A stretch of DNA of 64,000 nt. Origin: an uncultured Candidatus Saccharibacteria bacterium (GTDB lineage Bacteria > Patescibacteriota > Minisyncoccia > Phycocordibacterales > UBA918). The position numbers and the translations under genes are program-made. Of the stretch, positions 12,117 to 36,650 are shown piece by piece. Each line of letters opens with the position of its first letter. Within the stretch, counting starts at the first letter, position 1. The notes under the pieces were generated by a model. The model was given only the letters and a program-made list of their open reading frames with translations. It was not told the origin of the DNA and searched no databases. The stretch lies in contig CAYGKO010000001.1 of NCBI GenBank assembly GCA_964350735.1, forward strand, positions 246,578 through 310,577, written 5' to 3'.

Positions 12117-12134
12117 TACTTGAGTTCTGATCAT

Positions 12135-12147: not shown

Positions 12148-12154
12148 TAAGCGA

Positions 12155-12826
12155 ATGAATAAAGCTCCACTTAAAAATCGATTTGCCGCCTTGGCGGCGG
12201 ATGTAGTAGTTTTTGGCTTGGTTGATAAAAAACTCCATGTGCTGATTGATGATATTAATCGACCACCGCATTACTGCAATAAGCTTGGATTTTTAGGCGG
12301 ATTAGTTGAACCATCTGAAACAGCAGAGGATACAGTTGAGCGAATTTTATTTGAGAAAGCTGGTTTAAAAAATATGTATACGGAGCAGCTATATACTTTT
12401 AGCAAGGTAGCTCGAGATTTAAGAAACCGGGTTGTCGCAGTAGCGTACATTGGATTTATGACCCCTGATCAGGTTTTGTCGTACACACATGAGTCGGCCC
12501 GATTTGTGCCAGTGACTTCGCTAAAAAATTTAGCGTATGATCACGACGAGATGTTGAAAGTAGCCATCAAGCGCCTGACAGGAAAGCTGGCGTACACAAC
12601 TATCGCGCAGTATTTATTGCCAAATCACTTTACGCTAAGTGAATTACAGAATGTGTACGAAGTGCTGTTGAAAAAAGAGATCGATAAGCGAAACTTCCGT
12701 AAAAAGATTTTAGCCTTACAGGTCATTGAAGAGACTGGGGCAATGCAAGAAGGGATGCAGAATAGACCAGCCGCTCTATATCGGTTTAAGAACAGTAGGT
12801 TACAACAATTATCTGCAGTACTGTAG
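12155..12826 (+). CDS. nrtR: NrtR-family transcriptional regulator (Nudix-like ADP-ribose-binding domain + C-terminal winged helix)
   Basis: Degenerate Nudix box GFLGGLVEPSETAEDTVERILFEKAGL in the N-terminal half, C-terminal about 90 aa helical domain; adjacent to the nadM-nadV operon. Confidence 0.65.
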   Translation: MNKAPLKNRFAALAADVVVFGLVDKKLHVLIDDINRPPHYCNKLGFLGGLVEPSETAEDTVERILFEKAGLKNMYTEQLYTFSKVARDLRNRVVAVAYIGFMTPDQVLSYTHESARFVPVTSLKNLAYDHDEMLKVAIKRLTGKLAYTTIAQYLLPNHFTLSELQNVYEVLLKKEIDKRNFRKKILALQVIEETGAMQEGMQNRPAALYRFKNSRLQQLSAVL

Positions 12827-12917
12827 CAAAACCCTTTTTGTATGTTTACTTATTGTGTATATAACACTAATAAAAAAGGCGACAAGATTTCTCTTGTCGC
12901 CTGAGTTGATTGGTTCC

Positions 12918-14321: not shown

Positions 14322-14340
14322 GAGTTTCTCCTTTCTCAGT

Positions 14341-15237
14341 TTAAGATTGGTTGAGATGATCGAGCAATGCAGCCCCGAGTATCTGATGGGCATCGATAAG
14401 GTTGTCTATCAGGTCTTCGATGCGGAAGCATTTGACCGCGCTGATGTCGTCATTTGCGGTCGGTGCTTTCCAGCTGTTGGTGACGAGAAAGAAGTCGGTG
14501 CGAGTGCCATCTGCTTCGTCGCGGTAACGCATATCGTCGATTTTGAAATCGCCGATATGGACTGGGTTGCTTAGATTAAGCTCACCAAACTCTTCTTTGG
14601 TTTCCCGCAGCGCAGCAGCTTTTCGGGTCTCATCGCTTGGGTCAACAAACCCGCCGACGAAACGCCATTTGCCACAGTCTTCAGGTTTTTGACCGAGCCA
14701 GATAAATTCTCTGGCTCCATCCATCACCGCCACATCGACGGTAGACAGATCGACCGGATAGCGGCGGGTCGCGTGAGCGATCCAGCCCCGACGGTAGTCT
14801 GCGTTAGTGGTTTCGACTCCTTCGACTTTGATCCGATGCCGGATCTCAGTTCCTGAAGGAGCAGCGACCGGGTCAATTTCTTTGACCGGAAACGCGCCGC
14901 TGTAGTAGGGAGCGAATCCATCGCGTGAGCAGTAGAGGGTGACCTCGGCATCATGCGCGATCTCGTTCACCGTGCGATCAAGCTCGGCGCTCCAGCGTTC
15001 GTTGCTCGGCGTATCTTTGAGTGTCCCGACCAATATGGAAGGGAAGTGCTCATGGACCATCTGAGCGCGAAGGGGTGCTGGTAGCGGGTGCTTGGCACCG
15101 GGCACTTTGTCGCGTTCGCCGAGTAGTACGAGCACTGCATCATTTTCTGCTGTGACCGACTCGATGAGGTGGATATGGCCAGCGTGCAGGATGTCGACCT
15201 GCATGCGAGCGACGATAACACCAAGTGACTGTTTCAT
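14341..15237 (-). CDS. nadM: bifunctional NMN adenylyltransferase / Nudix ADP-ribose pyrophosphatase (NadM-Nudix)
   Basis: N-terminal VIVARMQVDILHAGHIHLI (HxGH nucleotidyltransferase); C-terminal Nudix box GGFVDPSDETRKAAALRETKEEFG. Confidence 0.8.
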   Translation of the reverse strand: MKQSLGVIVARMQVDILHAGHIHLIESVTAENDAVLVLLGERDKVPGAKHPLPAPLRAQMVHEHFPSILVGTLKDTPSNERWSAELDRTVNEIAHDAEVTLYCSRDGFAPYYSGAFPVKEIDPVAAPSGTEIRHRIKVEGVETTNADYRRGWIAHATRRYPVDLSTVDVAVMDGAREFIWLGQKPEDCGKWRFVGGFVDPSDETRKAAALRETKEEFGELNLSNPVHIGDFKIDDMRYRDEADGTRTDFFLVTNSWKAPTANDDISAVKCFRIEDLIDNLIDAHQILGAALLDHLNQS

Positions 15238-15341
15238 TGTGTAACTCCTATGAGGTTGTCGAAGAACGTAACTCAGGCTTCTGTACTGCTGGAGCGCTCC
15301 CGGCGTTAACCCAGAATGCGCCAGCAGAACAGAAGGTGATT

Positions 15342-15450
15342 GTTAATGTATTAACTACACTAACTAAGAACAATGGTTTGCCGCGCCTGTGCGCAGCTCT
15401 ATCTAATTTCTATACTAGCAGATAGTAATATTAGTGTCAATACTACACTA
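15342..15450. promoter_or_regulatory. candidate operators in the nadM upstream region
   Basis: Palindromes GTTAATgtATTAAC (15342-15355) and TAGTGTcaatactACACTA (15432-15450); the second shares GTGT/ACAC half-sites with the site at the nrtR promoter. Confidence 0.3.
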
Positions 15451-15452
15451 AG

Positions 15453-16307
15453 ATGCCTGGGGATAGAGAAAATAATTTGTTTAAGGTTTTGATTGTTATA
15501 CTAAAAGTAATGGTAAAGATCGGAGACCTAAATATTAAATATAGCCATTTCAATAATGGAATTTACTATTATAGTGTGCATATTGATGTGAATGGTGTGA
15601 AAAGGCAGATTGTCTTACCCAGGTACCATCAAATGGTGGGCTGGATTGAAGTGTTCGGTTTACCCCCACAGTTTGAATGGGTGATTTTGGAAACGATTGG
15701 TGATTTTGATAAAGAGGCCGTACTTACTATTGATGGAGAAGAATTTAGAGAATCTGTTTCATACCGTGCTAATGAAAGTGAAAAGCAGCACGAATTTACC
15801 GTTACTCGTGAGGGTGTTTTTTCTGAACAAGTACACTGTGTTGAATCGTATCGACAGGCTCCACAGCTGGTCAGTCTTAAAACAAATTTTGAGCATCAGG
15901 AGGGTGCGTATGTGTGTGATTACAAAAAGTCACTCATTGATATAGAAGATGTCTTAGATACAGAGCAAAATTTTGTAGATATGATTCTAATCGAAAACAA
16001 AATTCCTGATCATGTTTGGAGGAAACATTTTACTGCTTTTGGAAAAATTCCACCGGTGTATTATCATTTTTTTCCGCTGATATCCGGCTTAGATGTGTCA
16101 CAGTGTTCTGGTTCAGTATTAGAGCTTGGGTATCAGGCTGGTGAGGAAGGGGTAGATGCAGTACATGGAGATTGGCACAAATTATTGCGTATAAATGATC
16201 AGTCTTTTTACATTAAAGAAACTGGATATTCCTCGAGGGAAGTAACAACTCCTAATGGTACTGAGAGAATTAAAGACACCTATCGCAAAGAATTGTTTAA
16301 GCTTTAA
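15453..16307 (+). CDS. hypothetical protein (AT-rich gene, possibly acquired)
   Basis: 855 nt ORF; no recognisable motif; local GC is clearly lower than in the neighbours. Confidence 0.5.
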   Translation: MPGDRENNLFKVLIVILKVMVKIGDLNIKYSHFNNGIYYYSVHIDVNGVKRQIVLPRYHQMVGWIEVFGLPPQFEWVILETIGDFDKEAVLTIDGEEFRESVSYRANESEKQHEFTVTREGVFSEQVHCVESYRQAPQLVSLKTNFEHQEGAYVCDYKKSLIDIEDVLDTEQNFVDMILIENKIPDHVWRKHFTAFGKIPPVYYHFFPLISGLDVSQCSGSVLELGYQAGEEGVDAVHGDWHKLLRINDQSFYIKETGYSSREVTTPNGTERIKDTYRKELFKL

Positions 16308-16309
16308 AC

Positions 16310-16345
16310 AAAAGGGCCGGGAGCTTTGCTCCCGGCCCTTTTGTT
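16310..16345. terminator. bidirectional rho-independent terminator
   Basis: AAAAGGGCCGGGAGC-tttg-CTCCCGGCCCTTTTG. Confidence 0.85.
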
Positions 16346-16357
16346 TCTGTAATTGGT

Positions 16358-18448
16358 TTATACCACTTCCTTCTTCCACTTCTTCAGTACTCGAGAGAGT
16401 ACAATCGAAGCGATGAAGATTCCAACCGACAACGCCAGGAATTTTGGATCAAAGGCGTCGAAGGAGAGCCCAGAAGTACGGAACTCTTCGAGATCGATCG
16501 CGGCTCCGAGGGCAACGAAAGTAGTAAGGCCAGGCATGATACCAATCAAGGTAGCAGTGAAGTATGACTTCCAGTCTACCTTGAGAATCCCTGAGCCGTA
16601 GTTAGTGAGATCAAACGGCACATAGAAGAGACGCATAAAGAGAACTGACTCAAACGGTCGCTTGCGCAGCGCCTCTACCCAGTTGCCAATGATTGAATCT
16701 TCGAGCTTAAGGTCTTTCCCGAAGAAGCGGCCAATCCAGTAGGCGAAGTTAGCTGAGGCGTTTTCACCCAGAACGGTATACAAGATACCCCACCAGAGTC
16801 CAAAGAGCGCACCCGAGAGCGCTGTCAGCAGTGTAGCCGGAAAGAAGATAAGTGGACGAATGGCGTATAAGACCATGTAGACCACCGGCCCCCACATACT
16901 CGTCGTAAAGAAGGTGAGGAGGGTGAGTAAGAACTCGATGTTGCTGAGACCGTTGTCAGTTTTGTAGTTTTGGAATGCAACCAAGAGACCAATCCAGAAG
17001 ATAGCGGCGATTAGTTTCGGTGCGTGCTTTTTGGCGGCAGTGCTGAGGTCTTGTTTTAGGTCAGCAAACTGTTGCGCGAAGAAATAGTCACCGGCTTTCT
17101 TAACGATCAAGCTGTAGGTCGGGTAGGCGTAAATGAGATTACGCAATTTCCACATCGAAATCTTATGGTCAATCGCCAGGGTGAAGACAGAAAGAATTTC
17201 TCCAGCGGCGGGGCCAATAATATTGGCTCCCAGTACTTGGCCATTGAGGCGACGTGCCACTACTACCAATCGTCCGTCGGTCACGTCATCAGTATGAGCT
17301 CGGTCGTTCGCTGAGAAGGGGACTTCGACTTTCATTACCCCGCTTTCCGAGTATTTTGCTACGGCTTCTTTGTATGACAAGCCCACTTGCGCGATCTCAG
17401 GGGTGGTGAAGGTGACTTTCGGAATGGCCTTGTTCTTCTTTACTCGGAAGATGCCTTTACTGACTACTCGAGTAACAATCTGCCGAGCAATGTCGTCAGC
17501 CATGTGGGTAAACTTGAATTTTTGGGTCACATCACCAACCGCGTATACATATTTGTTTGAAGTACGGTGTTGTTTGTCGACGCAGATGCACTGCGGGCAG
17601 TTTTCAATCCCAGCTGCTTCAAGGCCTTTGGGAAAATTTGGGACGCGACCAATAGCAATGAGCGTTTTGTCGTAGGCTACTCGGATGGTTTCGGTAGTGT
17701 CTCCATCACGTCCGTCTGGCTTGATGTTAAATAACGCTTGCTTGTTTTCAACATTCGAAATATGCGCGTTGAGTAAGATCTTAATGTCTAAGTCCTCAAA
17801 CTTCTTCTGAATGATGGGGGAGATAGTCTCGTCTTCAAGTTTGGCGAAACGATTACCAGTGTCAGCGATAGTGACTTGGCTACCAAGCATAGCGAAGGCT
17901 TGGGCCATTTCCATGCCGATTGGCCCACCGCCGATGATGAGCAGTTTTTCCGGCACGTCTGACAGTGCAAAGATATTTTGGTTGGTTAAAATATCATTGG
18001 CGTTCATACCCGGTACATCGATCATCCGTGGGCTCGAGCCAGTGGCGATGATAGCGTTTTTGTAGTGGTAGGTGTCGTCGCCAACGGTGATACTGCACTT
18101 TGATTTGAACACGGCATCACCCATCACCACATCGATCCCAATTTTTTCAAAGGTTTCTGGAGTTTCTTCTTCCAAAATCGCATCAATTTTCGCGCGTACA
18201 TATGAAAAAGCTTCTGAGCGGAAGGTTTCACCAGTAGTAGTTTCTCCCGCGATCGTCTTAGCAAGATGGTAATCCTTAGCGTGGTGCAAGAGGGCTTTAC
18301 TGGGGACACAGCCTGAGTTGGTGCATTCGCCACCCATGTGTTCTTTTTCAACCAGTAGTACTTTCTTACCGACTTTGGAGAAACCAACCGCAGCGGTGAG
18401 TCCGCCTGATCCGGCTCCGATTACAACAACGTCATATGATTTCTCCAT
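16358..18448 (-). CDS. fusion protein: class-I pyridine nucleotide-disulfide oxidoreductase + C-terminal DedA/TVP38 (VTT) membrane domain
   Basis: N-terminal DVVVIGAGSGGLTAA...GGECTNSGCVPSK (FAD site and redox-active CxxxxC), NAD site IIGGGPIGMEMA. C-terminal about 230 aa with 5-6 TM helices and DedA motifs F(x)PATLLTALSGALFG...RLFYVPFDLTNYGSGILKV...GIMPG. Confidence 0.8.
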   Translation of the reverse strand: MEKSYDVVVIGAGSGGLTAAVGFSKVGKKVLLVEKEHMGGECTNSGCVPSKALLHHAKDYHLAKTIAGETTTGETFRSEAFSYVRAKIDAILEEETPETFEKIGIDVVMGDAVFKSKCSITVGDDTYHYKNAIIATGSSPRMIDVPGMNANDILTNQNIFALSDVPEKLLIIGGGPIGMEMAQAFAMLGSQVTIADTGNRFAKLEDETISPIIQKKFEDLDIKILLNAHISNVENKQALFNIKPDGRDGDTTETIRVAYDKTLIAIGRVPNFPKGLEAAGIENCPQCICVDKQHRTSNKYVYAVGDVTQKFKFTHMADDIARQIVTRVVSKGIFRVKKNKAIPKVTFTTPEIAQVGLSYKEAVAKYSESGVMKVEVPFSANDRAHTDDVTDGRLVVVARRLNGQVLGANIIGPAAGEILSVFTLAIDHKISMWKLRNLIYAYPTYSLIVKKAGDYFFAQQFADLKQDLSTAAKKHAPKLIAAIFWIGLLVAFQNYKTDNGLSNIEFLLTLLTFFTTSMWGPVVYMVLYAIRPLIFFPATLLTALSGALFGLWWGILYTVLGENASANFAYWIGRFFGKDLKLEDSIIGNWVEALRKRPFESVLFMRLFYVPFDLTNYGSGILKVDWKSYFTATLIGIMPGLTTFVALGAAIDLEEFRTSGLSFDAFDPKFLALSVGIFIASIVLSRVLKKWKKEVV

Positions 18449-18525
18449 AAATAAAAGTAATTAGTAGTAAGCGCCTATTGATACGACCATACTAGCGTAT
18501 TATTTCACTTTTGGGCACAAGAAAA

Positions 18526-18568
18526 CGCGTGGGGTGGAGGCACGGTTTTCCGTGTTCCACCTGCACGC
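18526..18568. terminator. hairpin downstream of the lipoprotein gene
   Basis: CGCGTG-GGTGGAggCACGG-tttt-CCGTGttCCACC-tgCACGCG. Confidence 0.4.
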
Positions 18569-18605
18569 GGTGAGCGCCATCGGCAGGAAGCTGCTGGCTG
18601 ACGAT

Positions 18606-19136
18606 TTAGGAGTCTGAATCCCTAAACCAGTTTATCGTGATACGGCATTGATCGCCGGCGGTGAAGTTTGTGCCGTCGAAAGCGATATTGCTGGTTTTGC
18701 AGCTTTTGCCCCACCGAACTTCTTCGACTGAGACAATTGACATCTCTTCATCAACGTAGAGCTGCCCCGGCCAGTTGGCATGGAGGTAGATCAGTTGTTC
18801 GACGAAGTCAGGCGCTGAATCCGCAGTTGGCGACTTGATGTATACGACCCCAGCAATGCCAGCGATGTCGATTGATTTATCGCTGATTGTGGTGGCGATT
18901 TGCGCCACCAACGCAGGCTCATCGATTGGTCCACGCAGCTTGTACGAGGTGTATATTTTTGTCGAACTTCCGACGCAGCGATTCTTTGCTGCGTCAGGGC
19001 CTTCGATCGAGAGCGCCATCAGAAACTCGATTTTTTCTGGTTTTTTTGGCGTTCCGGCTTCATTGTTGGCGCAGGCGTATGCTACTGGGCTGGACCCGAG
19101 CACGATCATGATGGAAAGAGCGATGAGACGGGCCAT
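18606..19136 (-). CDS. hypothetical secreted protein / lipoprotein
   Basis: N-terminal MARLIALSIMIVLGSSPVAYAC (signal peptide, possible lipobox Cys). Confidence 0.5.
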   Translation of the reverse strand: MARLIALSIMIVLGSSPVAYACANNEAGTPKKPEKIEFLMALSIEGPDAAKNRCVGSSTKIYTSYKLRGPIDEPALVAQIATTISDKSIDIAGIAGVVYIKSPTADSAPDFVEQLIYLHANWPGQLYVDEEMSIVSVEEVRWGKSCKTSNIAFDGTNFTAGDQCRITINWFRDSDS

Positions 19137-20022: not shown

Positions 20023-22191
20023 ATGGCACGAGCATTTCCAATCAGCCGCATGCGAAACTTTGGTATCGTAGCGCACGTTGACGCTGGTAAAACTACCACG
20101 TCTGAACGAGTACTCTTCTACACGGGTATGAGTCACAAAATTGGTGAAGTACACGACGGGGAAACCGTTACTGACTGGATGGACCAAGAACGAGAACGCG
20201 GTATTACTATTACGGCAGCGGCGATTTCATGTAACTGGGCCAAGACCCTTGAAACAGACCGAACCAATACTGACAAGCAACATACGTTTAACATCATCGA
20301 TACGCCAGGTCACATCGACTTCACCGCTGAAGTAAAACGATCGATGCGGGTACTCGACGGTGCGGTGGTAGTGTTTGACGGTGCCGCTGGTGTAGAACCA
20401 CAAACTGAAACCAACTGGGGCTACGCTGACGAAGCTGGTGTGCCACGAATCTGTTTTGTAAACAAAATGGATAAACTTGGAGCCGACTATGATGCTTCAA
20501 TCAAATCTATCGAAGAACGTCTCTCTCCGAAAGCTTTGCGAATCCAGCTACCAATTGGTTCTGAAGACAATCTCTCTGGTGTAGTTGATTTGGTCACTAT
20601 GAAGGCCTACCGGTTCGCTGGTGAAATGGGAATGGAAGTAACTGAAGAAGAAATTCCAGCTGACCTCGTTGATGAAGCAACTAAGCGACGAGCTGAGATG
20701 GTAGAGCGTGTAGTTGAGCATGACGATACGTTGATGGAAGCTTTTCTAGAAGGCAATGAGCCATCACTTGAAGATCTTAAGAAAACTCTTCGAAAGGCTG
20801 TCCTTGCAAACGAAATTTTCCCGGTAATGACAGGTTCTGCTTTGAAGAACATTGGCGTACAGCTCGTACTTGACGCCGTAGTTGATTACCTACCAGCCCC
20901 AAACGACTTGCCTGATACAGAAGGAATTGATCCAAAAACTGAGGAAGAAATTAAGCGATCACCAACTGACGAAGATCCATTCTCAGCCCTAGTTTTTAAA
21001 CTCCAAGACGATAAATTTGTAGGACAGCTGGCGTTCTTCCGAGTCTATTCTGGTTCAGTAAAATCAGGTTCATACATCATAAACTCATCAACTGGTAACA
21101 AAGAGCGGGTTGGACGGATCGTTCGATTGATGGCTGATAAGCGAGAGGAGATTGATGAAGTATTCGCCGGAGAAATTGCCGCTGCCGTGGGAATCAAAGA
21201 GGTAAAGACCTCGCACACTATTTGTGATCTTGATAAGCCGATTGTATTGGAACAAATTACCTTCCCCGCCCCAGTGGTAGCAGTGCGCGTAGAGCCTAAG
21301 ACAAAGAATGACCAAGAGAAAATGGGTGTTGCGCTCAAGCGATTGTCTGACGAAGACCCAACATTCGTAGTATCAAGTGATGAAGAAACTCTAGAAACTA
21401 TTATTGCTGGTATGGGTGAACTTCACCTCGATATTCTAGTAGACCGAATGAAACGAGAATTCGGCGTAGAAGCAAATATTGGGCAACCACAAGTAGCCTA
21501 CCGAGAAACTATCCGTGGTTCAGCTGAAGCAGACTACAAGTACCAGAAGCAAACCGGTGGACGGGGACAATACGGACATGTGAAGATTCGCATCAAGCCG
21601 CTGGAAGAACTAGCAAAAGATGAAGAAGGAAACGATGTGTCAGTAGCAAAGAATGTAAAACGAGAAGATCACTTCGAGTTTATCGATAGCATCAAGGGAG
21701 GAGTAATTCCAAACGAATTTATCCCCGCGGTAATGAAGGGAGCAAAAGAAGCGATGGGACGAGGATTCGTAGCTGGGTACAAAATGGAAGATGTCTCAGT
21801 TGAACTATTCGACGGGTCATTCCATGATGTAGACTCTTCAGAAATCGCTTTCAAGCTGGCTTCAATCAACGCTTTTAAGGAAGCGGCGGCTCGAGCGAAT
21901 CCAGTAATTCTTGAGCCAATCATGAAAGTTGAAGTCCGGACTCCAGATGAATACATGGGAGACATCCAAGGAAACATCTCATCAAAGCGTGGACAACTAG
22001 AGAGCTCAGAAGAAGTAGGTGGAAAGCTTATCATCAACGCAAAAGTGCCACTATCTGAAATGTTCGGATACACCAACACCCTTCGTTCGATGACTCAAGG
22101 ACGCGCTAGTATGACCATGGAATTTGATCACTACGAAGCGGTACCACCAAACGTAGCCGAAGAAATTAAGAAGGCTCGCGGAATTGCGTAA
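20023..22191 (+). CDS. fusA: elongation factor G
   Basis: AHVDAGKTTTSERVLFYTG...DTPGHIDFTAEV...NKMDK GTPase motifs; 722 aa; no rpsL/rpsG upstream and no tuf downstream. Confidence 0.95.
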   Translation: MARAFPISRMRNFGIVAHVDAGKTTTSERVLFYTGMSHKIGEVHDGETVTDWMDQERERGITITAAAISCNWAKTLETDRTNTDKQHTFNIIDTPGHIDFTAEVKRSMRVLDGAVVVFDGAAGVEPQTETNWGYADEAGVPRICFVNKMDKLGADYDASIKSIEERLSPKALRIQLPIGSEDNLSGVVDLVTMKAYRFAGEMGMEVTEEEIPADLVDEATKRRAEMVERVVEHDDTLMEAFLEGNEPSLEDLKKTLRKAVLANEIFPVMTGSALKNIGVQLVLDAVVDYLPAPNDLPDTEGIDPKTEEEIKRSPTDEDPFSALVFKLQDDKFVGQLAFFRVYSGSVKSGSYIINSSTGNKERVGRIVRLMADKREEIDEVFAGEIAAAVGIKEVKTSHTICDLDKPIVLEQITFPAPVVAVRVEPKTKNDQEKMGVALKRLSDEDPTFVVSSDEETLETIIAGMGELHLDILVDRMKREFGVEANIGQPQVAYRETIRGSAEADYKYQKQTGGRGQYGHVKIRIKPLEELAKDEEGNDVSVAKNVKREDHFEFIDSIKGGVIPNEFIPAVMKGAKEAMGRGFVAGYKMEDVSVELFDGSFHDVDSSEIAFKLASINAFKEAAARANPVILEPIMKVEVRTPDEYMGDIQGNISSKRGQLESSEEVGGKLIINAKVPLSEMFGYTNTLRSMTQGRASMTMEFDHYEAVPPNVAEEIKKARGIA

Positions 22192-22207
22192 GTTGCATAG
22201 TATAAAA

Positions 22208-22240
22208 CAAAAGCGGCGCCCGAGGGCGCCGCTTTTGTTT
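22208..22240. terminator. bidirectional rho-independent terminator
   Basis: AAAAGCGGCGCCC-gag-GGCGCCGCTTTTGTTTT. Confidence 0.85.
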
Positions 22241-22845
22241 TAGTTGAAGACTTGATACAAGACAGGAGTGAAGGTAATGATGCCGTAGAACATAAGCAGC
22301 ATCAATGCAGCAGCCTTTGCTCTTATGTTGGAGCTGTTTCGGTAGATCCAGAGCAAGAGTAGGGCTACGAAGATAGTATCGAGACTACCAACGATGTTCC
22401 CATAGTACGCTGGATTCCAGTACGAGACAGGGCTGTGGAATTTCCAGTCAGTGAGCGGCCAGAAGTGACGATAGGCGTCTTCAGCGTGGAAGAAGAAATC
22501 GAGTGTGATATGAAAGAGGGCGGAGGCTGAGAGCCATTTCAGGAATCTAAGCCCAAGAATATGACTAATTCCAAGTAGTATCGGCCACAAGATAAGTGAA
22601 TGTGACAAGGTGATAAGCGGTGTCCAAGCTGAATCAAAGTAGAGCACGTCCCACAGGTCGCTTTGACTAGCACCAACAACAAAGGTGAAGTAGAAGAAAA
22701 ATAGGTAGGTGGGCAGATCGGGCAGAACTGCACCGAGTATAAAGGCACCGAGACGCTGCTTATTTTTAGTACCTCCTGCTGCTTCAGTTTTCTCGGTCAC
22801 TTTTGCCAAGGCCCAGTTATAGACGAGGTGAGAAGTAGTGATCAT
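22240..22845 (-). CDS. YdjM/DUF457-like membrane-bound metal-dependent hydrolase
   Basis: Probable start MITTSHLVYNWAL...; His-rich TM segments SHSLILWP...LFHITLDFFFH. Confidence 0.45.
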   Translation of the reverse strand: MITTSHLVYNWALAKVTEKTEAAGGTKNKQRLGAFILGAVLPDLPTYLFFFYFTFVVGASQSDLWDVLYFDSAWTPLITLSHSLILWPILLGISHILGLRFLKWLSASALFHITLDFFFHAEDAYRHFWPLTDWKFHSPVSYWNPAYYGNIVGSLDTIFVALLLLWIYRNSSNIRAKAAALMLLMFYGIITFTPVLYQVFN

Positions 22846-22916
22846 GGTTTGAGAGTAGCATGGTAGGGGTATAAATAAAAAAGTCCCGGGCCGTTCTGAT
22901 ACGGCCCGGGTCCAGG

Positions 22917-23237
22917 TCAAGCTGCCATTTTACGTCCTGGACGCTCAGGCGGTTCTTTGTGCAATGCGACGCGATAGAGCAGGTCCCACCAAGCATCGAG
23001 GACATGTTGGTCGTAGATAGTGTTGCGACTAGTGAACGCATCGCGGATCGGATCTGGCAACTCGTCACCTACGCTATCAAGGAAATCATCGTAGCAGCGA
23101 AGGAACAACAATTCTAGGTTGATGCCCCGTTTAACCCAATCTTCTTCCGCTGCCATTTTTGCGAAATCAGAAATCGGGCTGTTTACACAGAGCCAAAGGA
23201 AAGCATCAGCGACTTTCAGACGCACTTCATCGTGCAT
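22917..23237 (-). CDS. hypothetical protein, 4 nt overlap with the downstream gene (operon)
   Basis: ATGA overlap with 22240..22920; SD AGGAG upstream; no recognisable motif. Confidence 0.5.
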   Translation of the reverse strand: MHDEVRLKVADAFLWLCVNSPISDFAKMAAEEDWVKRGINLELLFLRCYDDFLDSVGDELPDPIRDAFTSRNTIYDQHVLDAWWDLLYRVALHKEPPERPGRKMAA

Positions 23238-23253
23238 GTCGATCTCCTCTTGA

Positions 23254-23284
23254 GTCTAGGATAAGAACAGTCTAGGATAAGAAC
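23254..23284. repeat. tandem direct repeat 2 x GTCTAGGATAAGAAC in the 5' region of the minus-strand operon
   Basis: Two identical 15 bp units separated by 1 nt, 17-47 nt upstream of the start codon at 23237. Confidence 0.6.
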
Positions 23285-23598
23285 GGCTTCTCTTGATGGA
23301 GAGAGTAGCACAACCGTTGACTTTTGCCACTAAAAACCGTACTATAGCGCCGTTCCAAACCTCAGAAATATCTGGCCTGGTAGCTAGATATTTCGTAGAT
23401 GAACACCTGAATTTCGGAGCTCGCGAGCCGTTAACTCAAGAGCTACTCAAACGAGATTCTTCATACGCTTATTGATGCTTGCATCAGAGTGTTTTATTCG
23501 TTAATGAGGAACGGGGTGGTAATTGAATGACGTCCAGGAATTTGCCAGCAAATTCGGACATAAGTTCATAATAGTCGCTTCGCTCCTTTATTCACTTA

Positions 23599-26783: not shown

Positions 26784-27338
26784 ATGGAAAACATGAAAAC
26801 ACAGTTGAGCAAGGTTTTTGATTCTTTAAAAGGAACCTTCTCATACACTAATGTGATGCAAGCCCCGCGAATCGACAAGGTTGTCGTTTCAACAGGAACC
26901 GGAAAGATTGACGATAAGAACAAGATTGCTCTGATCGAAGATCGCCTGGCGCAAATCACTGGCCAGAAAGCAGCTCCGAGAGCCGCTCGACAGTCAATCG
27001 CGAGCTTCAAGCTGCGTGAAGGGGATATTGTGGGCTATCAGGTAACGCTTCGCGGCAACCAGATGCACAACTTCCTCGATAAGTTGGTCCACATTGCGTT
27101 ACCTCAGACTCGCGACTTCCGCGGGCTCAAGGTAACGGCGATTGATGAAATGGGTAACTATACGCTTGGCATCAAAGACCATACTATCTTTCCTGAAACT
27201 GCTGATGAAGAACTAAAAGACGTATTTAGTCTCGCGATTACTATCGTGACTACAGCTAGTACAAAGGAAGAGGCAGAAGCCCTGCTACGACATATCGGAC
27301 TTCCACTAGTGAAGCCTGAAGTTGCAGAAGCTGCGTAG
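26784..27338 (+). CDS. rplE: 50S ribosomal protein L5
   Basis: ...APRIDKVVVSTGTGK...QKAAPRAARQSIASFKLREG. Confidence 0.95.
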   Translation: MENMKTQLSKVFDSLKGTFSYTNVMQAPRIDKVVVSTGTGKIDDKNKIALIEDRLAQITGQKAAPRAARQSIASFKLREGDIVGYQVTLRGNQMHNFLDKLVHIALPQTRDFRGLKVTAIDEMGNYTLGIKDHTIFPETADEELKDVFSLAITIVTTASTKEEAEALLRHIGLPLVKPEVAEAA

Positions 27339-27361
27339 TCGATAGACTGTAAACAGCAAGT

Positions 27362-27409
27362 AACAACACAAAAGGCCGGTGCCTGTGGGCGCCGGCCTTT
27401 TGTGTTGTT
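27362..27409 (+). terminator. strong rho-independent terminator inside the spc cluster, followed by TATAAT
   Basis: ACAACACAAAAGGCCGGTGCC-tgt-GGGCGCCGGCCTTTTGTGTTGT, then TATAAT 8 nt before the next ATG. Confidence 0.85.
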
Positions 27410-27421
27410 ATAATAGACTGC

Positions 27422-28513
27422 ATGATTGAAAAACCAGTCTCTCATAGAGAAAATTCCGAGAAAAGAAGAAGGAATATTGCAAAAATATTTGGTGCTTTTT
27501 TAGCTAGTCTGTCTCCGGAGGCAAAAGCTATAGAGATACCAGTCGATGCTAGCTGGTCTGAAGGTGCGGCGTTATTGCGGAATGCAGTTTTCGAGAAAGA
27601 AAATGAGCAGGCTGCCGTATTTGTGATTTCTGGATCGGGAGAAAGTGGTTGGGTATACGGAACCGAAGGAGATGAATACTCAGTGACGCGATTCAATGAT
27701 GAGATTGTAGAAAGCGCAGCGGGTAAAAAGTTACTGGCGGGTGAAGTTAAGCTGTGTCTAATTCACACGCATCCCAGGAGTCTTCCAGAGCCAGATTTCC
27801 AGATGGAGATTGGGCCATCAAGTCAAGATTTATATAACAATAATGACGATCGTCACTATTTTGACCTTGTCGAACTAGGCGCCTTTCCAGAATATGAAGA
27901 TCTTCATGCGCTTGAATCGTTTAACATAACTAAAGCAGTATTTACACCAAATGGAGTGTGGTACCACCAGTCAGCTGATTATAGTGCCCGACAAGCGTTT
28001 CTTCCGGCAGAGTATCCTAATGATGAACAGCATGCTGATTTAGGTAAGAAAGTCCAAGCTATGAGTTCACGTTTATTCAGAGATTTACTGGAGCAAGCAG
28101 AGAATCCGGAGCAAATATTTGAAAGTCTAATGGAAGAGAAGTTAGTTAATGAATTTGAATCTGACGAGGAGAAGAAGCGTTATCTGTTAGCAAGATTGAA
28201 GGGCAGAGTCAACCTTGCGTACCGAGGCGGTATTGCTGTAGCAGCTCAATCGCTCGCATTTTTGCACTTATGGGACAACCATCAAGAATTTAAAGATTTG
28301 ATTAAAACTAGTCGTTTATATATGGGATCACGTGGTTACTGGGAAGGTCAAGGCTGGAATATAGTTGATGATAACGATGGTGTTTTATCAGACGAAGAAA
28401 TTAGAAAAACGACCATGATGATTGCTACCACCGGTCAGCTTGGTCGGTTCGTAACTTACGAAGACTTAGTTAAGGAACCGGCCTGTGCTGGTGCTGAATT
28501 TCAACTGAACTAG
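27422..28513 (+). CDS. hypothetical protein with possible degenerate JAB/MPN-like metal motif (inserted in the spc operon)
   Basis: LCLIHTHPRS...GPSSQD resembles the RadC/JAB HxHPxG...PSxxD motif but with a 9-residue insertion; C-terminal about 200 aa acidic helical domain unknown. Confidence 0.5.
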   Translation: MIEKPVSHRENSEKRRRNIAKIFGAFLASLSPEAKAIEIPVDASWSEGAALLRNAVFEKENEQAAVFVISGSGESGWVYGTEGDEYSVTRFNDEIVESAAGKKLLAGEVKLCLIHTHPRSLPEPDFQMEIGPSSQDLYNNNDDRHYFDLVELGAFPEYEDLHALESFNITKAVFTPNGVWYHQSADYSARQAFLPAEYPNDEQHADLGKKVQAMSSRLFRDLLEQAENPEQIFESLMEEKLVNEFESDEEKKRYLLARLKGRVNLAYRGGIAVAAQSLAFLHLWDNHQEFKDLIKTSRLYMGSRGYWEGQGWNIVDDNDGVLSDEEIRKTTMMIATTGQLGRFVTYEDLVKEPACAGAEFQLN

Positions 28514-28696
28514 TGGCTTAATCACAAAGAGTAGTAATCTGTCAGATTGCATAAACACAAATCGCTGTAGCGGCAGGGAAGATTCGCCCCCTGCATGCAC
28601 GGCGGTTTTCTTTTTTAAATAATGGCTAGAAATATAGGTATTTTAATGGTATACTGCAGATACTAAATCTGACACTCACGAAAGGGAGGTCATCTC

Positions 28697-28942
28697 ATGC
28701 TGAAAATTGGCATTGCTATCGTCTTGATCGGTATGCTCATCTGGCTGCTGCAGTGGTTTGGCTACTTTATGCGGCGCTCATGGTATCGCCATGTGCCGAA
28801 GTTTCTGATCGCGAACGGCGCGTTTTTGCCTGTACCACTGCATCTCTGGGCTGACGGGCTCATCATTTTCATTCTCTGGATTCTTTTTCTGGAGGTTACC
28901 GATTGGTGGCGGGAACGTCGCCAGAAACTCAAGGAGGTCTGA
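28697..28942 (+). CDS. small 2-TM membrane protein
   Basis: SD AAAGGGAGG; two hydrophobic helices, basic C-terminus; own TGGTATACT promoter upstream. Confidence 0.55.
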   Translation: MLKIGIAIVLIGMLIWLLQWFGYFMRRSWYRHVPKFLIANGAFLPVPLHLWADGLIIFILWILFLEVTDWWRERRQKLKEV

Positions 28943-28967
28943 CCATGAACCCTTCAGGTTCTTTCGC

Positions 28968-28995
28968 TGCCGGAGCGTGCTCCGGCGGCTTTTTA
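28968..28995 (+). terminator. rho-independent terminator
   Basis: GCCGGAGCGTGCTCCGGCGGCTTTTT. Confidence 0.7.
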
Positions 28996-29055
28996 TTTGA
29001 GTCTCATGAAAAGTGGTGTTATGGTGGTCTCTATATATCTTAATCCTTATTATTT

Positions 29056-30423
29056 ATGCGCTACGTATCCATTTTCTTACTCTTCATCATGCTGCTTCCA
29101 GCTACTGCTTCAGCGCAGTCTGCTTCAGAAACCATGCTGCGCCAGCAACTGATTGCTTTGATTCAATCACTGCAGATCGAGTTGGCGGCCAGACTAGGGC
29201 AGCAGGGCATGCCAGTAGCAAACATTGACTCAGCTCGTTTACGTAGTCAGGATTTTTCAGAAGGGGTTAACTTTATCTATCCGGCCGATAAAGATTTTTC
29301 TTTCTATATGATTGAGAATGGTACTGAGTTTGGGGAAGATATCGATACGCGCTCGTGGCATATCGTATCCAACAATACATTGGTCGGAAATATCGACTTG
29401 GGCAACGAGTTGGTTAGTGAGGCATTTGAAGCGGCATTGGCAGTGGTGGAACTGGCGGCCATGTTTAGTGGCTTTTCTGACACCTCAATAGATATTGAGG
29501 ATCTGCCAAGGCAAAATGGGTACGACATCAAACATTTGGTAATTGAGGATGCTGGTGAAGTGGCCGGAACTTACATTGCTCAAAAAGAGCTTACCTACCG
29601 AGGGGAGTCATACATTGTTTTACTACGAATCGTGTACGGTAATTTAGAGAGCACACTTGAATCGGTAGCAGCACAATACGATACGGACTTTGATGATTTC
29701 TATTTCCCCACTAAGGCAGAAGCTCGCAACTTCTTCAACACAGTAGTGCGTGAAACAGAGTTTGATGTACGAGCAATCAGTCGGGTGATTGAAAATACTG
29801 ATGCTGAGTTGCGTGATTTGATTGAAGACGCGCGCGATGAAGGGCCAGAAGATGAAGAAGAATTTTCCGTTCGACCAGTAAGTAGAGCAGATCATTATCA
29901 AGGTAGTCTGAATGCAGAAGTGCAGTTGATTTCGTATATCGGCTTTGACGATCCATTTTCACGAAACTTGCACGAAACCCGGAGTCGAATTATGGATGAA
30001 TACGACGCACGTGAAGTGGTTTGGGTATATCGAAATTTTCCGATTGCTCAGTTACATCCAAATGGTCCAGCATTGGCAGCAGCAGCAGAGTGTGTGGCGA
30101 CTGAAGGAGGAAACACAGCGTACTGGAAGTTCGTTGATAAGATCTTCTCAGATCGCACTGCGTCAGCAAAAACGGACATGGACGACCTCCCGTCCTACGC
30201 CCGCAGTGCGGGAGTCTCCACCAGTCGATTTAATACGTGTGTTGAAGAAGGGGAAACTGAAGCTGTGGTCACTGCAGACTTTGAAGAAGGGGTAGCAGCT
30301 GGAGTAGTTGGGACACCGCATACCGTGGTGATTGTTGGTGATAAAAAAGGTGTTATTAACGGTGCTCAGCCGTATGCAGTTGTGAAGCAGACAATTGATA
30401 ACTTGCTTATGCAGTTAGACTAG
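29056..30423 (+). CDS. secreted DsbA-like thioredoxin-fold protein with degenerate active site (DPFS instead of CxxC), long N-terminal unknown domain
   Basis: Signal peptide MRYVSIFLLFIMLLPATASA. C-terminal about 170 aa match the DsbA/BdbD layout (EVQLISYIGFDDPFSRNLHET...VVGTPHTVVIVGDKKGVINGAQP) with the catalytic CPxC replaced by DPFS. Confidence 0.6.
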   Translation: MRYVSIFLLFIMLLPATASAQSASETMLRQQLIALIQSLQIELAARLGQQGMPVANIDSARLRSQDFSEGVNFIYPADKDFSFYMIENGTEFGEDIDTRSWHIVSNNTLVGNIDLGNELVSEAFEAALAVVELAAMFSGFSDTSIDIEDLPRQNGYDIKHLVIEDAGEVAGTYIAQKELTYRGESYIVLLRIVYGNLESTLESVAAQYDTDFDDFYFPTKAEARNFFNTVVRETEFDVRAISRVIENTDAELRDLIEDARDEGPEDEEEFSVRPVSRADHYQGSLNAEVQLISYIGFDDPFSRNLHETRSRIMDEYDAREVVWVYRNFPIAQLHPNGPALAAAAECVATEGGNTAYWKFVDKIFSDRTASAKTDMDDLPSYARSAGVSTSRFNTCVEEGETEAVVTADFEEGVAAGVVGTPHTVVIVGDKKGVINGAQPYAVVKQTIDNLLMQLD

Positions 30424-30452
30424 GGAGGTACAGAGTAGATGCTATAAAACGC

Positions 30453-30480
30453 TTGAATTTCTATGAAAAACCCGTATAGT
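30453..30480 (+). promoter_or_regulatory. promoter for the rpsN-secY block
   Basis: TTGAAT-N16-TATAGT, followed by two small leader hairpins (CTGACTgtcgAGTCAG; TCGGCgattactaGCCGA). Confidence 0.45.
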
Positions 30481-30579
30481 AGGGCCACTTCGCGCTGACT
30501 GTCGAGTCAGACGAGTAATTAAAAGCGTTGTGAGTCGGCGATTACTAGCCGATACCACAGCACCATAAGATCAACCTAA

Positions 30580-30765
30580 ATGGCACGAAAAGCAATTGAG
30601 GTGCGCGCTAGCCGTGTACCAAAATACAAGTGTCGGGTAGTCCGTCGATGTTCTCTCTGTAGCCGTAAGCGCGGGTACATGCGAGATTTCGACATGTGTC
30701 GTATTTGCTTTAGAGAGCAAGCACACGAAGGGCATATCCCGGGTGTTACAAAATCATCATGGTAA
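30580..30765 (+). CDS. rpsN: 30S ribosomal protein S14 type Z (zinc-binding)
   Basis: 61 aa, [29 protein letters not shown] with two CxxC pairs. Confidence 0.9.
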
Positions 30766-34510: not shown

Positions 34511-34549
34511 TCAAAGTCGCAAAATCACTACGCCTACTTCGTTAGGCTA

Positions 34550-34596
34550 CGAAAAAATCTCCTCACTGGGCATCTGCCCCATTCGGGGATTTTTTC
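34550..34596 (+). terminator. secY terminator hairpin
   Basis: GAAAAAATC...(inner CCCCattcGGGG)...GATTTTTTC. Confidence 0.55.
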
Positions 34597-34767
34597 TTGC
34601 CCGCCTCGTATCCGCAGCAATTTTGTGACTTTGAACATCACTTCATTTGCTTTGTTACCCTTCGTGAAATAGTCCTCACCGTACTCTTGTACCACTCGAA
34701 TTATTTCACTCGTGCTTCGCGCCACTAAAGCAATTTTCTATTCACTCCTAAATCTAGAAAACTCTAC

Positions 34768-34802
34768 ACAAAAGAGTGACGCCCGGGGCGCCACTCTTTT
34801 GT
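34768..34802. terminator. long hairpin
   Basis: ACAAAAGAGTG-acgccccggggcgc-CACTCTTTTGT. Confidence 0.5.
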
Positions 34803-34862
34803 GTTTGCTTAAATTAAGCTGGTCTTGTATGGTTCATAAAGATTATTGAAAGGAGCTGTACG

Positions 34863-35321
34863 ATGGACTCAGTTGAAACTAAGTTTGGAGTAGTTAATTT
34901 ATTGGAAAGCATAGACTGTAGTTTGCTTAGAGGCACTTGGATTCAGCTGAAAGAACATTCTGGTAAGGTTGCTTTAGAAGTACCAATCGATCGTGTACTT
35001 TCAGCATCAGATCGATTCATCTGCGTTTCGTTAGATTGTGTAGATAACTTATTTTTTCAACCGTTGGCAATTCTTTTTGTTGCAGGCCCAACTGAGTTGA
35101 GGGTTCCGTATGCAGTTGATGATGGTCTTGGGAAAGCGCTTATGTCTGCCTCAGTCATCTCAAGTGTTAGCTTAGGACAAAGTTACTGCGAAGGTATGGC
35201 TGCATTCACGATTGATGGGACCGAAAGTTTTTTACTAGATCATCGTCAGTTCAGCAAAACGGGTGTAGTCACTACAACCCCGATAGTTAGTTCATCAAGT
35301 CGAAGATGGTGGTCATCATGA
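34863..35321 (+). CDS. hypothetical protein
   Basis: Good SD GAAAGGAG; 152 aa; no recognisable motif; Ser-rich C-terminus. Confidence 0.45.
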   Translation: MDSVETKFGVVNLLESIDCSLLRGTWIQLKEHSGKVALEVPIDRVLSASDRFICVSLDCVDNLFFQPLAILFVAGPTELRVPYAVDDGLGKALMSASVISSVSLGQSYCEGMAAFTIDGTESFLLDHRQFSKTGVVTTTPIVSSSSRRWWSS

Positions 35322-35355
35322 GGGTGTGTGCAGGCAATTGTGCCAGCACACACCC
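35322..35355. terminator. bidirectional hairpin between convergent genes
   Basis: GGGTGTGTGC-aggcaattgtgccA-GCACACACCC. Confidence 0.6.
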
Positions 35356-35356
35356 A

Positions 35357-35989
35357 TTAATAACTATTCTTATGTGAATACCCAAGCGGTACTTCCGAAT
35401 GCACCGGTTCCCAAGTTTCACTGGTGAGCCATTTTTTATAAAAATCAAAGACGGTGAGGGCGACGGTCTGAGGGCTGTGGCGTGAGGTGTTGATCACTAA
35501 GTCGAAGTGCTGGGTGTTGTAAGGATCAACGCCGTACATCGAACGATAACGCCGTTGTTCGTTCGCTACCCGTTCTTGCACTTGCTTGGCCACCTCACCA
35601 ATAGTGCTTGCTCTACCAGCGCCACTTGCTCGACTAGCGTTTTCAGTGGAGTCACTAAAAATACGGGCCGTAGCGACGTCCATATCGAGATCCAAGAAAA
35701 CTTTAAATGATTCAGGGATCCAATAAAAACCTAGCCGAGAGTCAACAATAATATCGTTCTTTTTACGGAGCTCACGAAGCTGCTCGTCAATCTCATGGTC
35801 CAGAGCATGATCATCGGCTGCTTGTTTGTTAAATTCTGCCAGCGTCATATTCTTCTGGTCCAACATTTTTCGCACCATATTCCCCGATGAAAAGCGGGTA
35901 TAACCCAACAGCTCAGCTACTTTGTCAGCGGTAGATGATTTCCCGCTACCAGGACGACCAGAGAGCGTGATGAGGTGTTTCTTTTCCAT
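35357..35989 (-). CDS. cmk: cytidylate kinase-like P-loop NMP kinase
   Basis: ITLSGRPGSGKSS...LGY...SSGNMVR (CMP kinase NMP-binding), DSRLGFYW, RYRSMYGVDP. Confidence 0.65.
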   Translation of the reverse strand: MEKKHLITLSGRPGSGKSSTADKVAELLGYTRFSSGNMVRKMLDQKNMTLAEFNKQAADDHALDHEIDEQLRELRKKNDIIVDSRLGFYWIPESFKVFLDLDMDVATARIFSDSTENASRASGAGRASTIGEVAKQVQERVANEQRRYRSMYGVDPYNTQHFDLVINTSRHSPQTVALTVFDFYKKWLTSETWEPVHSEVPLGYSHKNSY

Positions 35990-36058
35990 AATTTGCTACA
36001 GCATACCATTCTCCAGACCTTCTTGCAGAAGCTGTAAAAATTGCTACTCTAGAGGCTC

Positions 36059-36646
36059 ATGGAAAACGTACAAGGTCACCTCGTGCTACTGATGGCACCA
36101 TCAGGTAGTGGGAAAAAGATGATGGTTGATGGTCTCGGAGAGACTGCAGATGAATTGCTTTTTATTAAAACCTATACCAGTCGCGCCAAACGCGAAGGTA
36201 CAGATGAGAATCCTAAGTACGAGTTTGTCTCACTGGCAGAGTTCGAACAAATGATTGAGGACGATACGTTTGTTGAGTGGGCAAATTTTAGCGGAAATCT
36301 GTATGGTACTTCAAAGTTAGAAATTGCCGAATATTTGAAAGAAAAGAAAGTGGCATTTAAAGAGATGGAGCTGCAAGGAGTGAATCAGATAAAAAATCTC
36401 TTTCCCAAAGAGAATATCTCAGTGATCTATATTGATGCGGGAGATTGGTCACAGCTTGAAACGCGCATTTTAGCTCGGGCAGCGATTTCTGATGAAGAGC
36501 TTGAATTACGTCGACTGCGCTATGAAGAAGAGGCGAAGTTTAAAGACCAAGCAGACATCATCATTAGTAATAAAAATGGTGAAGGAGAAAAGGCACAAGC
36601 AGAATTTAGAAAAGTTATTAAAGAAATTGTAGACTCACTTAAGTAA
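36059..36646 (+). CDS. gmk: guanylate kinase
   Basis: LMAPSGSGKKMM...TYTSRAKREGTDENPKYEFVSLAEFEQMIEDDTFVEWANFSGNLYGT. Confidence 0.75.
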   Translation: MENVQGHLVLLMAPSGSGKKMMVDGLGETADELLFIKTYTSRAKREGTDENPKYEFVSLAEFEQMIEDDTFVEWANFSGNLYGTSKLEIAEYLKEKKVAFKEMELQGVNQIKNLFPKENISVIYIDAGDWSQLETRILARAAISDEELELRRLRYEEEAKFKDQADIIISNKNGEGEKAQAEFRKVIKEIVDSLK

Positions 36647-36650
36647 ATCC

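Follow-up and report, generated by a model that had tools for sequence, protein, structure and literature searches.

The rplE-rpsN junction of the spc operon, a hypervariable site in Paceibacteria, and the three predicted envelope-protein genes that fill it in one genome

Few features of bacterial genomes are as conserved as the S10-spc gene order, which routinely serves as a phylogenetic and binning anchor for genomes of the candidate phyla radiation (CPR). In the 64-kb stretch of contig CAYGKO010000001.1 analysed here (the window), rplE and rpsN do not show the tight L5-S14 adjacency of the canonical spc operon. They are 3241 bp apart, and according to the open reading frame (ORF) listing and Pfam the interval is filled by three ORFs on the same strand, termed here g1, g2 and g3. 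The three genes lie at the coordinates given by an earlier sequence-only reading of the window, and Pfam confirmed both flanking genes. rplE is the final gene of the S19-L22-S3-L16-L29-S17-L14-L24-L5 transcription module and rpsN opens the downstream S14-S8-L6-L18-S5-L15-SecY block; each block is contiguous, with products 60-89% identical to Pfam-labelled ribosomal genes on related contigs. An independent Logan assembly (ERR3534985; L001) contains the same 6-kb arrangement with 100% identity, and the rplE-g1-g2-g3-rpsN order is therefore not an assembly artefact. The features of the interval and its flanks are as follows.

26784..27338, plus strand: rplE (ribosomal protein L5), with Pfam Ribosomal_L5/L5_N and L5_C
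27361..27410, plus strand: intrinsic-terminator-like hairpin after rplE (inverted repeat, folding)
27406..27414, plus strand: extended -10 promoter-like box TGTTATAAT (direct sequence reading)
27422-28513, plus strand: g1, ORF of 363 aa
28559..28616, plus strand: terminator-like hairpin and U-run after g1 (z = -3.5, then UUUUCUUUUUU)
28627..28655, plus strand: g2 promoter-like site TAGAAA-N17-TATACT with an upstream TG (consensus match only)
28697-28942, plus strand: g2, ORF of 81 aa
28966..28999, plus strand: predicted intrinsic terminator after g2 (hairpin 28966-28989, z = -4.7, then TTTTTATTT)
29056-30423, plus strand: g3, ORF of 455 aa
29950..29961, plus strand: DPFS of g3 in place of the catalytic CPFC (alignment of g3 with nine homologues)
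30453..30480, plus strand: promoter-like site TTGAAT-N16-TATAGT of rpsN-rpsH-rplF-rplR-rpsE-rplO-secY (consensus scan)
30481..30579, plus strand: rpsN 5' leader of about 99 nt (folding z = -2.0; alignment of rpsN upstream regions)
30580..30765, plus strand: rpsN (S14, 61-aa zinc-type form), Pfam Ribosomal_S14 E = 3.6e-23

The L5 of the window is 62-81% identical to L5 from 80 Paceibacteria species, and its closest matches (79-81%) belong to metagenome-assembled genomes labelled Nomurabacteria, Kaiserbacteria, Paceibacteria or 'Saccharibacteria'. Judging from this relationship, the source organism is a Paceibacteria (Patescibacteria/CPR) bacterium. L30 is missing from the S5-L15 interval in the ORF listing of the window; CPR genomes usually carry no L30 between S5 and L15.

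To compare the junction across the clade, the rplE regions of the 80 species representatives were collected and all intergenic distances from S19 to SecY were measured. The other 14 junctions had medians from -6 to 24 bp and all remained below 300 bp, whereas the L5-S14 junction reached 5615 bp, with a median of 800 bp. It exceeded 300 bp in 47 of the 63 closed junctions and 1 kb in 27 of them, and nine further loci had no rpsN within at least 1.5 kb of rplE. The gap widened with kinship to the window: its median was 1099 bp where L5 was at least 75% identical, but 184 bp, with gaps as short as 2 bp, where the identity was below 66%. An insertion at L5-S14 had been described as very unusual on the basis of the sequence alone; this holds for bacteria generally, but within the clade an occupied junction is the rule. 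The cargo is highly diverse: the gaps contain 113 ORFs of 100 aa or longer, 111 of them in relatives; 90 were singletons, and most were mutually unrelated. The majority had no Pfam match at all, and the matches obtained were scattered over ABC transporter, GSP synthase, DUF475/TerC, LemA, PNPase with S15, GGDEF, NYN, Fic and other families; none of the 25 families listed, out of 37 Pfam families matched by gap ORFs, is a recombinase. An enrichment of membrane or secreted proteins in the junction cargo was considered and rejected (44% compared with 41% for the ORFs of the window). The trio itself was looked for at this position in all 80 species and was not found; no homologue of g1, g2 or g3 lies near rplE in any of them (profile search, E < 1 for g1).

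L2-S19 is a second variable junction of the clade: of the 29 that were closed, 24 are longer than 300 bp, and at 34 loci L2 is missing from the nearest 1.5 kb. Upstream of S19, the window has EF-G and two reverse-strand ORFs that match no Pfam family (22240-22920 and 22917-23237, in the region 22192-23598). No L2 or L23 homologue was detectable in the 64-kb window, so that the S10-L2 block, or at any rate its distal part, lies elsewhere.

The trio had originally been regarded as foreign cargo, and the segment could in principle be an island gained recently by horizontal transfer, or what is left of a mobile element or prophage. It interrupts an otherwise conserved operon and its content is unique, given that g1 and full-length g3 matched only themselves in a word-indexed search of 5.8 billion clusters. 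However, its GC and tetranucleotide composition is typical of the window (tetranucleotide distance at the 43rd percentile), no direct or inverted repeats bracket 27339-30579, and neither an integrase or transposase nor att sites, target-site duplications, terminal inverted repeats or a displaced rplE 3' end were found. Phage and defence matches are likewise missing (PHROGs, PADLOC), the g1 family is missing from IMG/VR, and the nearest relatives of the g3 DsbA domain are DsbA proteins of the same lineage. The segment thus lacks the make-up of a genomic island, an integrative element or an integron; a recent acquisition of this kind appears highly improbable, and the foreign-cargo description is not supported.

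Predicted transcription signals were found on both sides of the junction. Directly after rplE, a hairpin with 23-nt arms (27361-27383 and 27388-27410, 96% complementary) folds with a dG of -45.2 kcal/mol (z = -8.0), in agreement with the very strong terminator claimed previously at this place, and most close relatives have an equivalent GC-rich hairpin followed by a U-run 3' of rplE. The separate rpsN promoter proposed at 30453 was also supported, as its position is conserved: TTGnnn-N15-TGGTAyTnT occurs at the equivalent position, 127-169 nt 5' of rpsN, in 16 of 57 relatives. The consensus promoter scan as such was not significant (12 sites compared with 19.7 expected in shuffled sequence), so promoter matches carry weight only through conservation. 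In L014, L016, L017, L020, L030, L042, L049, L052 and other relatives, the conserved rpsN promoter is followed by a leader of 100-170 nt containing GGATTATnAGGGAG; the leader of the window is moderately structured and contains GGCGATTAC, which resembles this clade motif. The leader has no Rfam match and may be an undescribed ribosomal-protein leader, possibly involved in autoregulation by S8 or S14. By these predicted signals, L5-S14 is a terminator/promoter boundary across the clade.

Within the segment, the box TGTTATAAT is a perfect extended -10 that overlaps the 3' arm of the post-rplE hairpin and ends 7 nt ahead of the g1 ATG; since the g1 start has no Shine-Dalgarno sequence, the g1 mRNA is probably leaderless. 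The g2 start is preceded by a GGGAGG Shine-Dalgarno sequence ending 7 nt ahead of the ATG, and the terminator after g2 has a GC-rich stem of 10 bp followed by a U-run. Neither the hairpin scan nor folding revealed a terminator-like structure 3' of g3, and g3 transcripts therefore probably run on into rpsN. The suggestion that each cargo gene has its own promoter and terminator was thus correct in part: the sites are present where claimed and terminators follow g1 and g2, but none follows g3 and the consensus matches are not significant.

The first cargo gene, g1, encodes a protein with an N-terminal signal or anchor and a cleavage-type site between AKA and IE, a JAB core (residues ~40-190), a helical domain (200-335) and a conserved C-terminal strand and tail, RFVTYE..EPACAG, which bears C355. 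The core has the MPN/JAB alpha-beta fold and contains the motifs HTHP (115-118) and PSSQD (132-136), with E62, C112, H115, H117, S133 and D136 as the JAB core residues. A full HMMER scan of 1.84 billion representatives identified 54 distant relatives of 250-410 aa and ~25% identity, 28 of which were aligned. C112, H115, H117, D136, G178 and Y181 are invariant across the alignment, and W45, G48, E62, W77, G83, P132, R342, V344, E352, C355 and G357 are at least 90% conserved. The family thus carries the full JAMM signature, E...HxH...(P)SxxD, together with a C-terminal RFVxYE..EPPCAG tail. In g1, 15 residues separate HxH from S, compared with 7-10 in canonical JAMM proteins. In all family members the N-terminus is short, basic and hydrophobic and leads to an AxA-type site, and 26 of the 28 have exactly two cysteines, C112 and C355, the exceptions being P0051, which lacks the C-terminal cysteine, and P0079, which has a third. 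This pattern is what an exported protein with a single disulfide would show, or one with a cysteine switch acting on the metal site; C112 and C355 would in this way probably tie the C-terminal tail to the active-site strand. The family diverges fast, with identities of 31-46% between g1 homologues compared with 69-83% for TerC and 80-90% for PNPase at the same loci.

Curated sequence models did not recognise g1. No Pfam family matched at E <= 1, and NCBIfam, PHROGs and PADLOC also gave nothing; a Pfam scan of the 28 family members returned sub-threshold matches only, each to a single member (Prok-JAB 0.054, Toxin-JAB1 0.0071, DUF4329 0.16). The g1 profile had no relevant match among the PDB sequences, the word-indexed cluster search repeated with the family profile returned two proteins, and a metagenome scan with a narrow g1 alignment returned seven loci. 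The assignment of g1 as JAB/JAMM-like is supported by fold and motif, without support from a curated sequence model. Accordingly, the previous description of the largest gene as RadC/JAB-like stands as to the fold and the complete E/HxH/SxxD signature, but no curated model (Pfam, PDB) matches it. g1 is probably a Sec-exported JAMM/MPN+ zinc-metallopeptidase-like enzyme with an intact catalytic motif, which would most likely cleave a peptide or isopeptide bond outside the cell.

g1 is only ~10-17% identical to the JAMM/MPN+ proteins PfJAMM1 (5LD9), AfJAMM, Rpn11, AMSH, BRCC36 and CBASS Cap3 and to RadC-type JAB proteins. It differs from them by the export signal, the longer HxH-SxxD spacer, an extra conserved cysteine before HxH, a helical domain of 130 aa and the conserved C-terminal tail. 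Prokaryotic JAB domains were described in 2012 as all intracellular except for those of the toxin clades Tox-JAB-1 and Tox-JAB-2, and the Tox-JAB-2 motif consists of E, H[ST]H, S and D (Zhang et al. 2012; PMC3482391). g1 resembles Tox-JAB-1 and Tox-JAB-2 (DUF4329) in its predicted export and in the E, H[ST]H, S, D signature, but it is a stand-alone protein with a Sec signal and has neither RHS or trafficking modules nor a conserved downstream immunity gene. It comprises only the signal peptide, the JAB core and the helical domain, and its neighbour varies, unlike the organisation of a polymorphic toxin/immunity pair. Iridovirus proteins occur among the fold matches of g1. In another protein, P0038 (1864 aa), 18 separate stretches match g1 residues 63-97, which form two core beta-strands (E = 1e-20); P0038 may consist of repeats of a JAB-core hairpin, or the similarity may be compositional.

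The second gene, g2, has two hydrophobic, transmembrane-like segments in its hydropathy profile (residues 1-24 and 45-71). No homologue was found in the 80 related loci, Pfam gave only sub-threshold noise, and no match came from PADLOC, PHROGs or NCBIfam. With its two hydrophobic segments, strong Shine-Dalgarno sequence and separate terminator, g2 probably is a genuine micro-membrane protein. Its GC content at third codon positions (GC3) is 0.66, compared with 0.35 in g1, 0.43 in g3 and 0.37-0.49 in the ribosomal genes, which hints at a different history or at a strong codon or amino-acid bias in a very short gene.

The third gene, g3, encodes a signal peptide (residues 1-21, with cleavage between ASA and Q), an orphan N-terminal region (22-270) and a DsbA/Thioredoxin_4 domain (278-449), which was recognised by PF13462 (E = 3.5e-14, 53.8 bits, cut-off 23.2) and PF01323 (E = 1.3e-7, 32 bits, cut-off 25.6). 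Over its C-terminal 190 aa, g3 shares 45-51% identity with Paceibacterota DsbA homologues of ~250 aa that bear an N-terminal transmembrane (TM) anchor. At the active-site position, all nine aligned homologues have C-P-F/Y-C and g3 has D-P-F-S, as had been proposed for a secreted DsbA-like protein. Two nucleotides must change for each cysteine to be replaced, and L001 has the same sequence, so this is not a sequencing error. g3 keeps the thioredoxin fold with its helical insertion, the invariant cis-Pro loop (G419-T420-P421) and a second, structural pair of cysteines (C346, C395), as in the DsbA/BdbD/MdbA oxidoreductases; it differs from these in the change from CPFC to DPFS, a cleavable signal peptide in place of the TM anchor, the orphan N-terminus of 250 aa and the neighbourhood. 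Because the catalytic CxxC is missing, g3 was classed as DsbA-derived and not as an oxidoreductase; having lost both catalytic cysteines, it is incapable of CxxC-dependent thiol-disulfide exchange. The N-terminal region has no homologues in the 5.8 billion clusters, and single-sequence AF2 gave a pLDDT of 36 with no assignable fold. No intact DsbA is present within the window. The canonical DsbA of relatives sits in a conserved BacA-DsbA-UvrD/AddA context, which identifies g3 as a relocated and remodelled paralogue. g3 would thus have arisen from the membrane-anchored DsbA of the lineage by exchange of the anchor, gain of the N-terminal region and loss of the catalytic cysteines, and it is most likely a binding or chaperone-type protein acting through the retained cis-Pro groove. 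No useful literature precedent for a DsbA without CxxC was found.

About 12 distinct contexts of g1 homologues were examined for conserved neighbours (L082-L089, L093, L095, L096/97, L098, L100 and L101). In L082-L089, tblastn detected neither a g2- or g3-like gene nor a ribosomal-protein gene nearby; the DsbA profile had no further match in any ORF of these loci or of the 80 rplE loci, and no thioredoxin or DsbA family was among the called neighbours listed for the later contexts (L093-L102). The recurrent neighbourhood of the g1 homologue (g1h) is rpsO-NYN-(TerC)-g1h-(NUDIX)-pnp, and g1-family genes lie between rpsO/NYN/TerC and pnp in L083, L084, L085, L087, L095 and L100. In L041, an rpsO-NYN-x-pnp block without a g1 homologue lies directly downstream of rplE.

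These contexts bear on the proposal that the three genes form a module. Such a functional unit would consist of an exported JAMM effector or toxin, a membrane partner or immunity protein (g2) and a redox-dead chaperone or inhibitor for cysteine-bearing segments (g3). The three genes are same-strand neighbours whose products are all predicted to be envelope-targeted, the cysteine pair is conserved in nearly all aligned g1 members and g3 descends from a disulfide oxidoreductase; polymorphic toxin systems include exported H[ST]H JAB toxins and small immunity proteins with two TM segments (PMC3482391), and the sub-threshold Pfam matches of the g1 family include Toxin-JAB1, DUF4329 and Prok-JAB. 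On the other hand, in none of the ~12 other g1-family contexts does a gene like g2 or g3 lie nearby, both g1 and g2 are followed by their own terminator, the DsbA of relatives belongs to the BacA-DsbA-UvrD/AddA context, g1 has no toxin-trafficking or RHS-type N-terminal domain, PADLOC found no match and the GC3 of g2 departs strongly from that of g1. A single functional unit is thus quite unlikely, and the three-gene module was not retained.

In one of these contexts, L096/L097, a g1 homologue with 23% identity also lies between rplE and rpsN, where an HD-domain gene and a reverse-strand membrane protein take the place of g2 and g3. Three copies of a 46-nt sequence, AACGAACGTAACGGTTCAAGAGGTAACTCTAATACAAAAAC, which is the usual post-rplE sequence of this sub-clade, are present there: one ahead of the HD gene, one separating it from the g1 homologue and one beyond the homologue. 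In addition, a direct repeat of 55 nt brackets the HD gene and the g1 homologue (L096:2900-5200). This second occurrence could mean that g1 is an ancient, vertically inherited resident of L5-S14 that was lost in most descendants, only g2 and g3 being later additions. The ribosomal proteins of the two organisms are well conserved (L5 74%, S3 81%, L14 89%), and since the g1 family outpaces its neighbours at other loci, orthologues of 23% identity are plausible. However, g1 is missing from the junction in all 80 species representatives, direct repeats flank the L096 homologue as they would a captured cassette, and most members of the family reside elsewhere, for example in rpsO-NYN-TerC-g1h-pnp; ancient residence is accordingly a doubtful explanation.

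Repeats at the end of rplE are not restricted to L096/L097. L029 has a duplicate of the rplE 3' end, 127 nt long, located 1.6 kb downstream of the original (6411-6537 and 8005-8131), and L013, L018 and L020 have exact duplicates of 17-82 nt of the rplE end just after rplE. In these relatives, the repeats are the marks of an insertion or duplication brought about by recombination at the 3' end of rplE. The repeat-bracketed cargo resembles the layout of a cassette array, with no recombinase seen nearby. The likeness to integron-like arrays or to 3'-end integration applies to L096/L097 and L029 only, in which cargo is separated by copies of a short sequence or by a duplicate of the rplE end, and it is one of layout only, as there is no integrase or attC-type site and the window itself has no such repeats.

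In 15 of the 80 species, rplE is followed immediately by a structured RNA of ~140-165 nt (for example L030:6547-6685, L041:6543-6702, L004:6563-6719 and L096:2957-3098), with a paralogous copy 3' of rplB in at least eight (L041:2575-2731, L004:1017-1164 and 1207-1357, L013:1047-1207, L003:558-718, L038:1805-1965). It is composed of a hairpin and a three-way-junction-like core, and its closing helix has another copy of the rplE 3' end as its 3' strand. Covariation was strong: 94.9% of cells were paired and compensatory changes occurred in 29 of 42 pairs, whereas shuffles gave 14.2 and slid controls no more than 9. RNase P, the signal recognition particle RNA and a 5S-like RNA were rejected as identities, as no Rfam family matched (gathering score or E <= 5) and the element is multicopy per genome. 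The window contains no copy (best E = 0.25), and none was found in viral contigs. It is conceivable, if unlikely, that the 3' ends of rplE and rplB constitute a dedicated cassette-capture site, entered by recombination at the conserved post-gene sequence or at the structured RNA. If so, the site would yield repeat-separated cassette arrays inside the S10 and spc operons and favour fast-evolving exported proteins such as a secreted JAMM; these cassettes would serve the episymbiont cell surface, and g1, g2 and g3 would be three captured cassettes with decayed boundary repeats.

Taken together, the 3.2-kb segment is probably this genome's filling of a clade-wide, transcriptionally insulated soft spot and not a dedicated three-gene system. 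In related Paceibacteria, the S10-spc cluster would be split into separately transcribed modules at L2-S19 and L5-S14, the upstream module being closed by a strong predicted terminator right after rplE and the rpsN module having its own putative promoter and 100-170-nt leader. As transcription is already interrupted at L5-S14, inserted DNA should not starve the downstream ribosomal genes. Different species would then have accumulated different, mostly orphan genes at exactly this point, and recombination at the rplE 3' end may have been one entry route, its repeats being present in relatives and not in the window. The cargo of the window would be three independent envelope-targeted genes of predicted function, with separate terminators for g1 and g2.

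Several points weigh against this soft-spot explanation. The terminators and promoters on which the insulation depends are predictions from the sequence, and the entry mechanism is extrapolated from relatives, as the window lacks flanking repeats. All relatives sampled have an L5 identity of 81% or less, too distant to give the age and order of the insertions in this genome. The divergent g1 homologue in the same junction of L096 means that g1 might be an old resident. Finally, all three products are predicted envelope proteins, and the g1 cysteine pair near a DsbA-derived gene leaves room for a functional link. The closeness of C112 and C355 is a prediction from conservation.

Insertions between the operons of the translation cluster are known in Gammaproteobacteria and Bacilli, and insertion has been proposed to relax the selection for synteny (PMC8046335). 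The junction described here is similar in that non-ribosomal genes enter a conserved cluster whose synteny then loosens. It differs in that the breaks fall inside the classical spc (L5-S14) and S10 (L2-S19) operons and are clade-wide, with hypervariable content and, in some species, repeats and structured RNA. In the literature, covered incompletely, no description of hotspots within the spc or S10 operons or of an L5-S14 split in CPR bacteria was found. The systematic fragmentation of the S10 and spc operons at two sites in one clade, with variable cargo, is new, as would be the putative exported, cysteine-paired JAMM-fold family and the predicted DsbA-derived pseudo-enzyme.

Additional features were noted in the window. 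The str/spc/alpha cluster is broken further: S12-S7 (5719-6760) are separated from EF-G (20023-22191) by ~13 kb of unrelated genes (6969-19136), including rhodanese, MsrA, ABC-F, an NrtR-like Nudix regulator and others. Between SecY and Adk-Map (34511-36650, 2.1 kb) lie an orphan ORF of 152 aa, a reverse cytidylate-kinase-like gene and a guanylate kinase, and a perfect terminator with an 18-bp stem is found on the minus strand just after secY (34766-34804). A gene on the minus strand (16358-18448) encodes a 696-aa fusion of Pyr_redox_2 and a dimerisation domain with a C-terminal VTT/DedA membrane domain, an apparently unusual architecture in a genome that also bears a putatively redox-dead DsbA. 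A tmRNA gene with the tag ANKAIPSPYANAFGFAPAVA is located at 61033-61426 on the minus strand.

The identification of one large CPR clade with two hypervariable break points inside S10/spc shows how operon splitting can create insertion-tolerant sites in the ribosomal gene cluster. In practical terms, contig breaks, mis-binning and 'missing' ribosomal genes are likely at L2-S19 and L5-S14. Known JAMM enzymes act on ubiquitin-like tails inside cells; an extracytoplasmic g1 would therefore imply another substrate, for example an isopeptide bond of the cell wall or surface. The g1 family is uncharacterised and fast-diverging, and it is a candidate host-interaction factor for episymbiotic CPR bacteria, while g3 would represent a clear natural case of a DsbA turned pseudo-enzyme.

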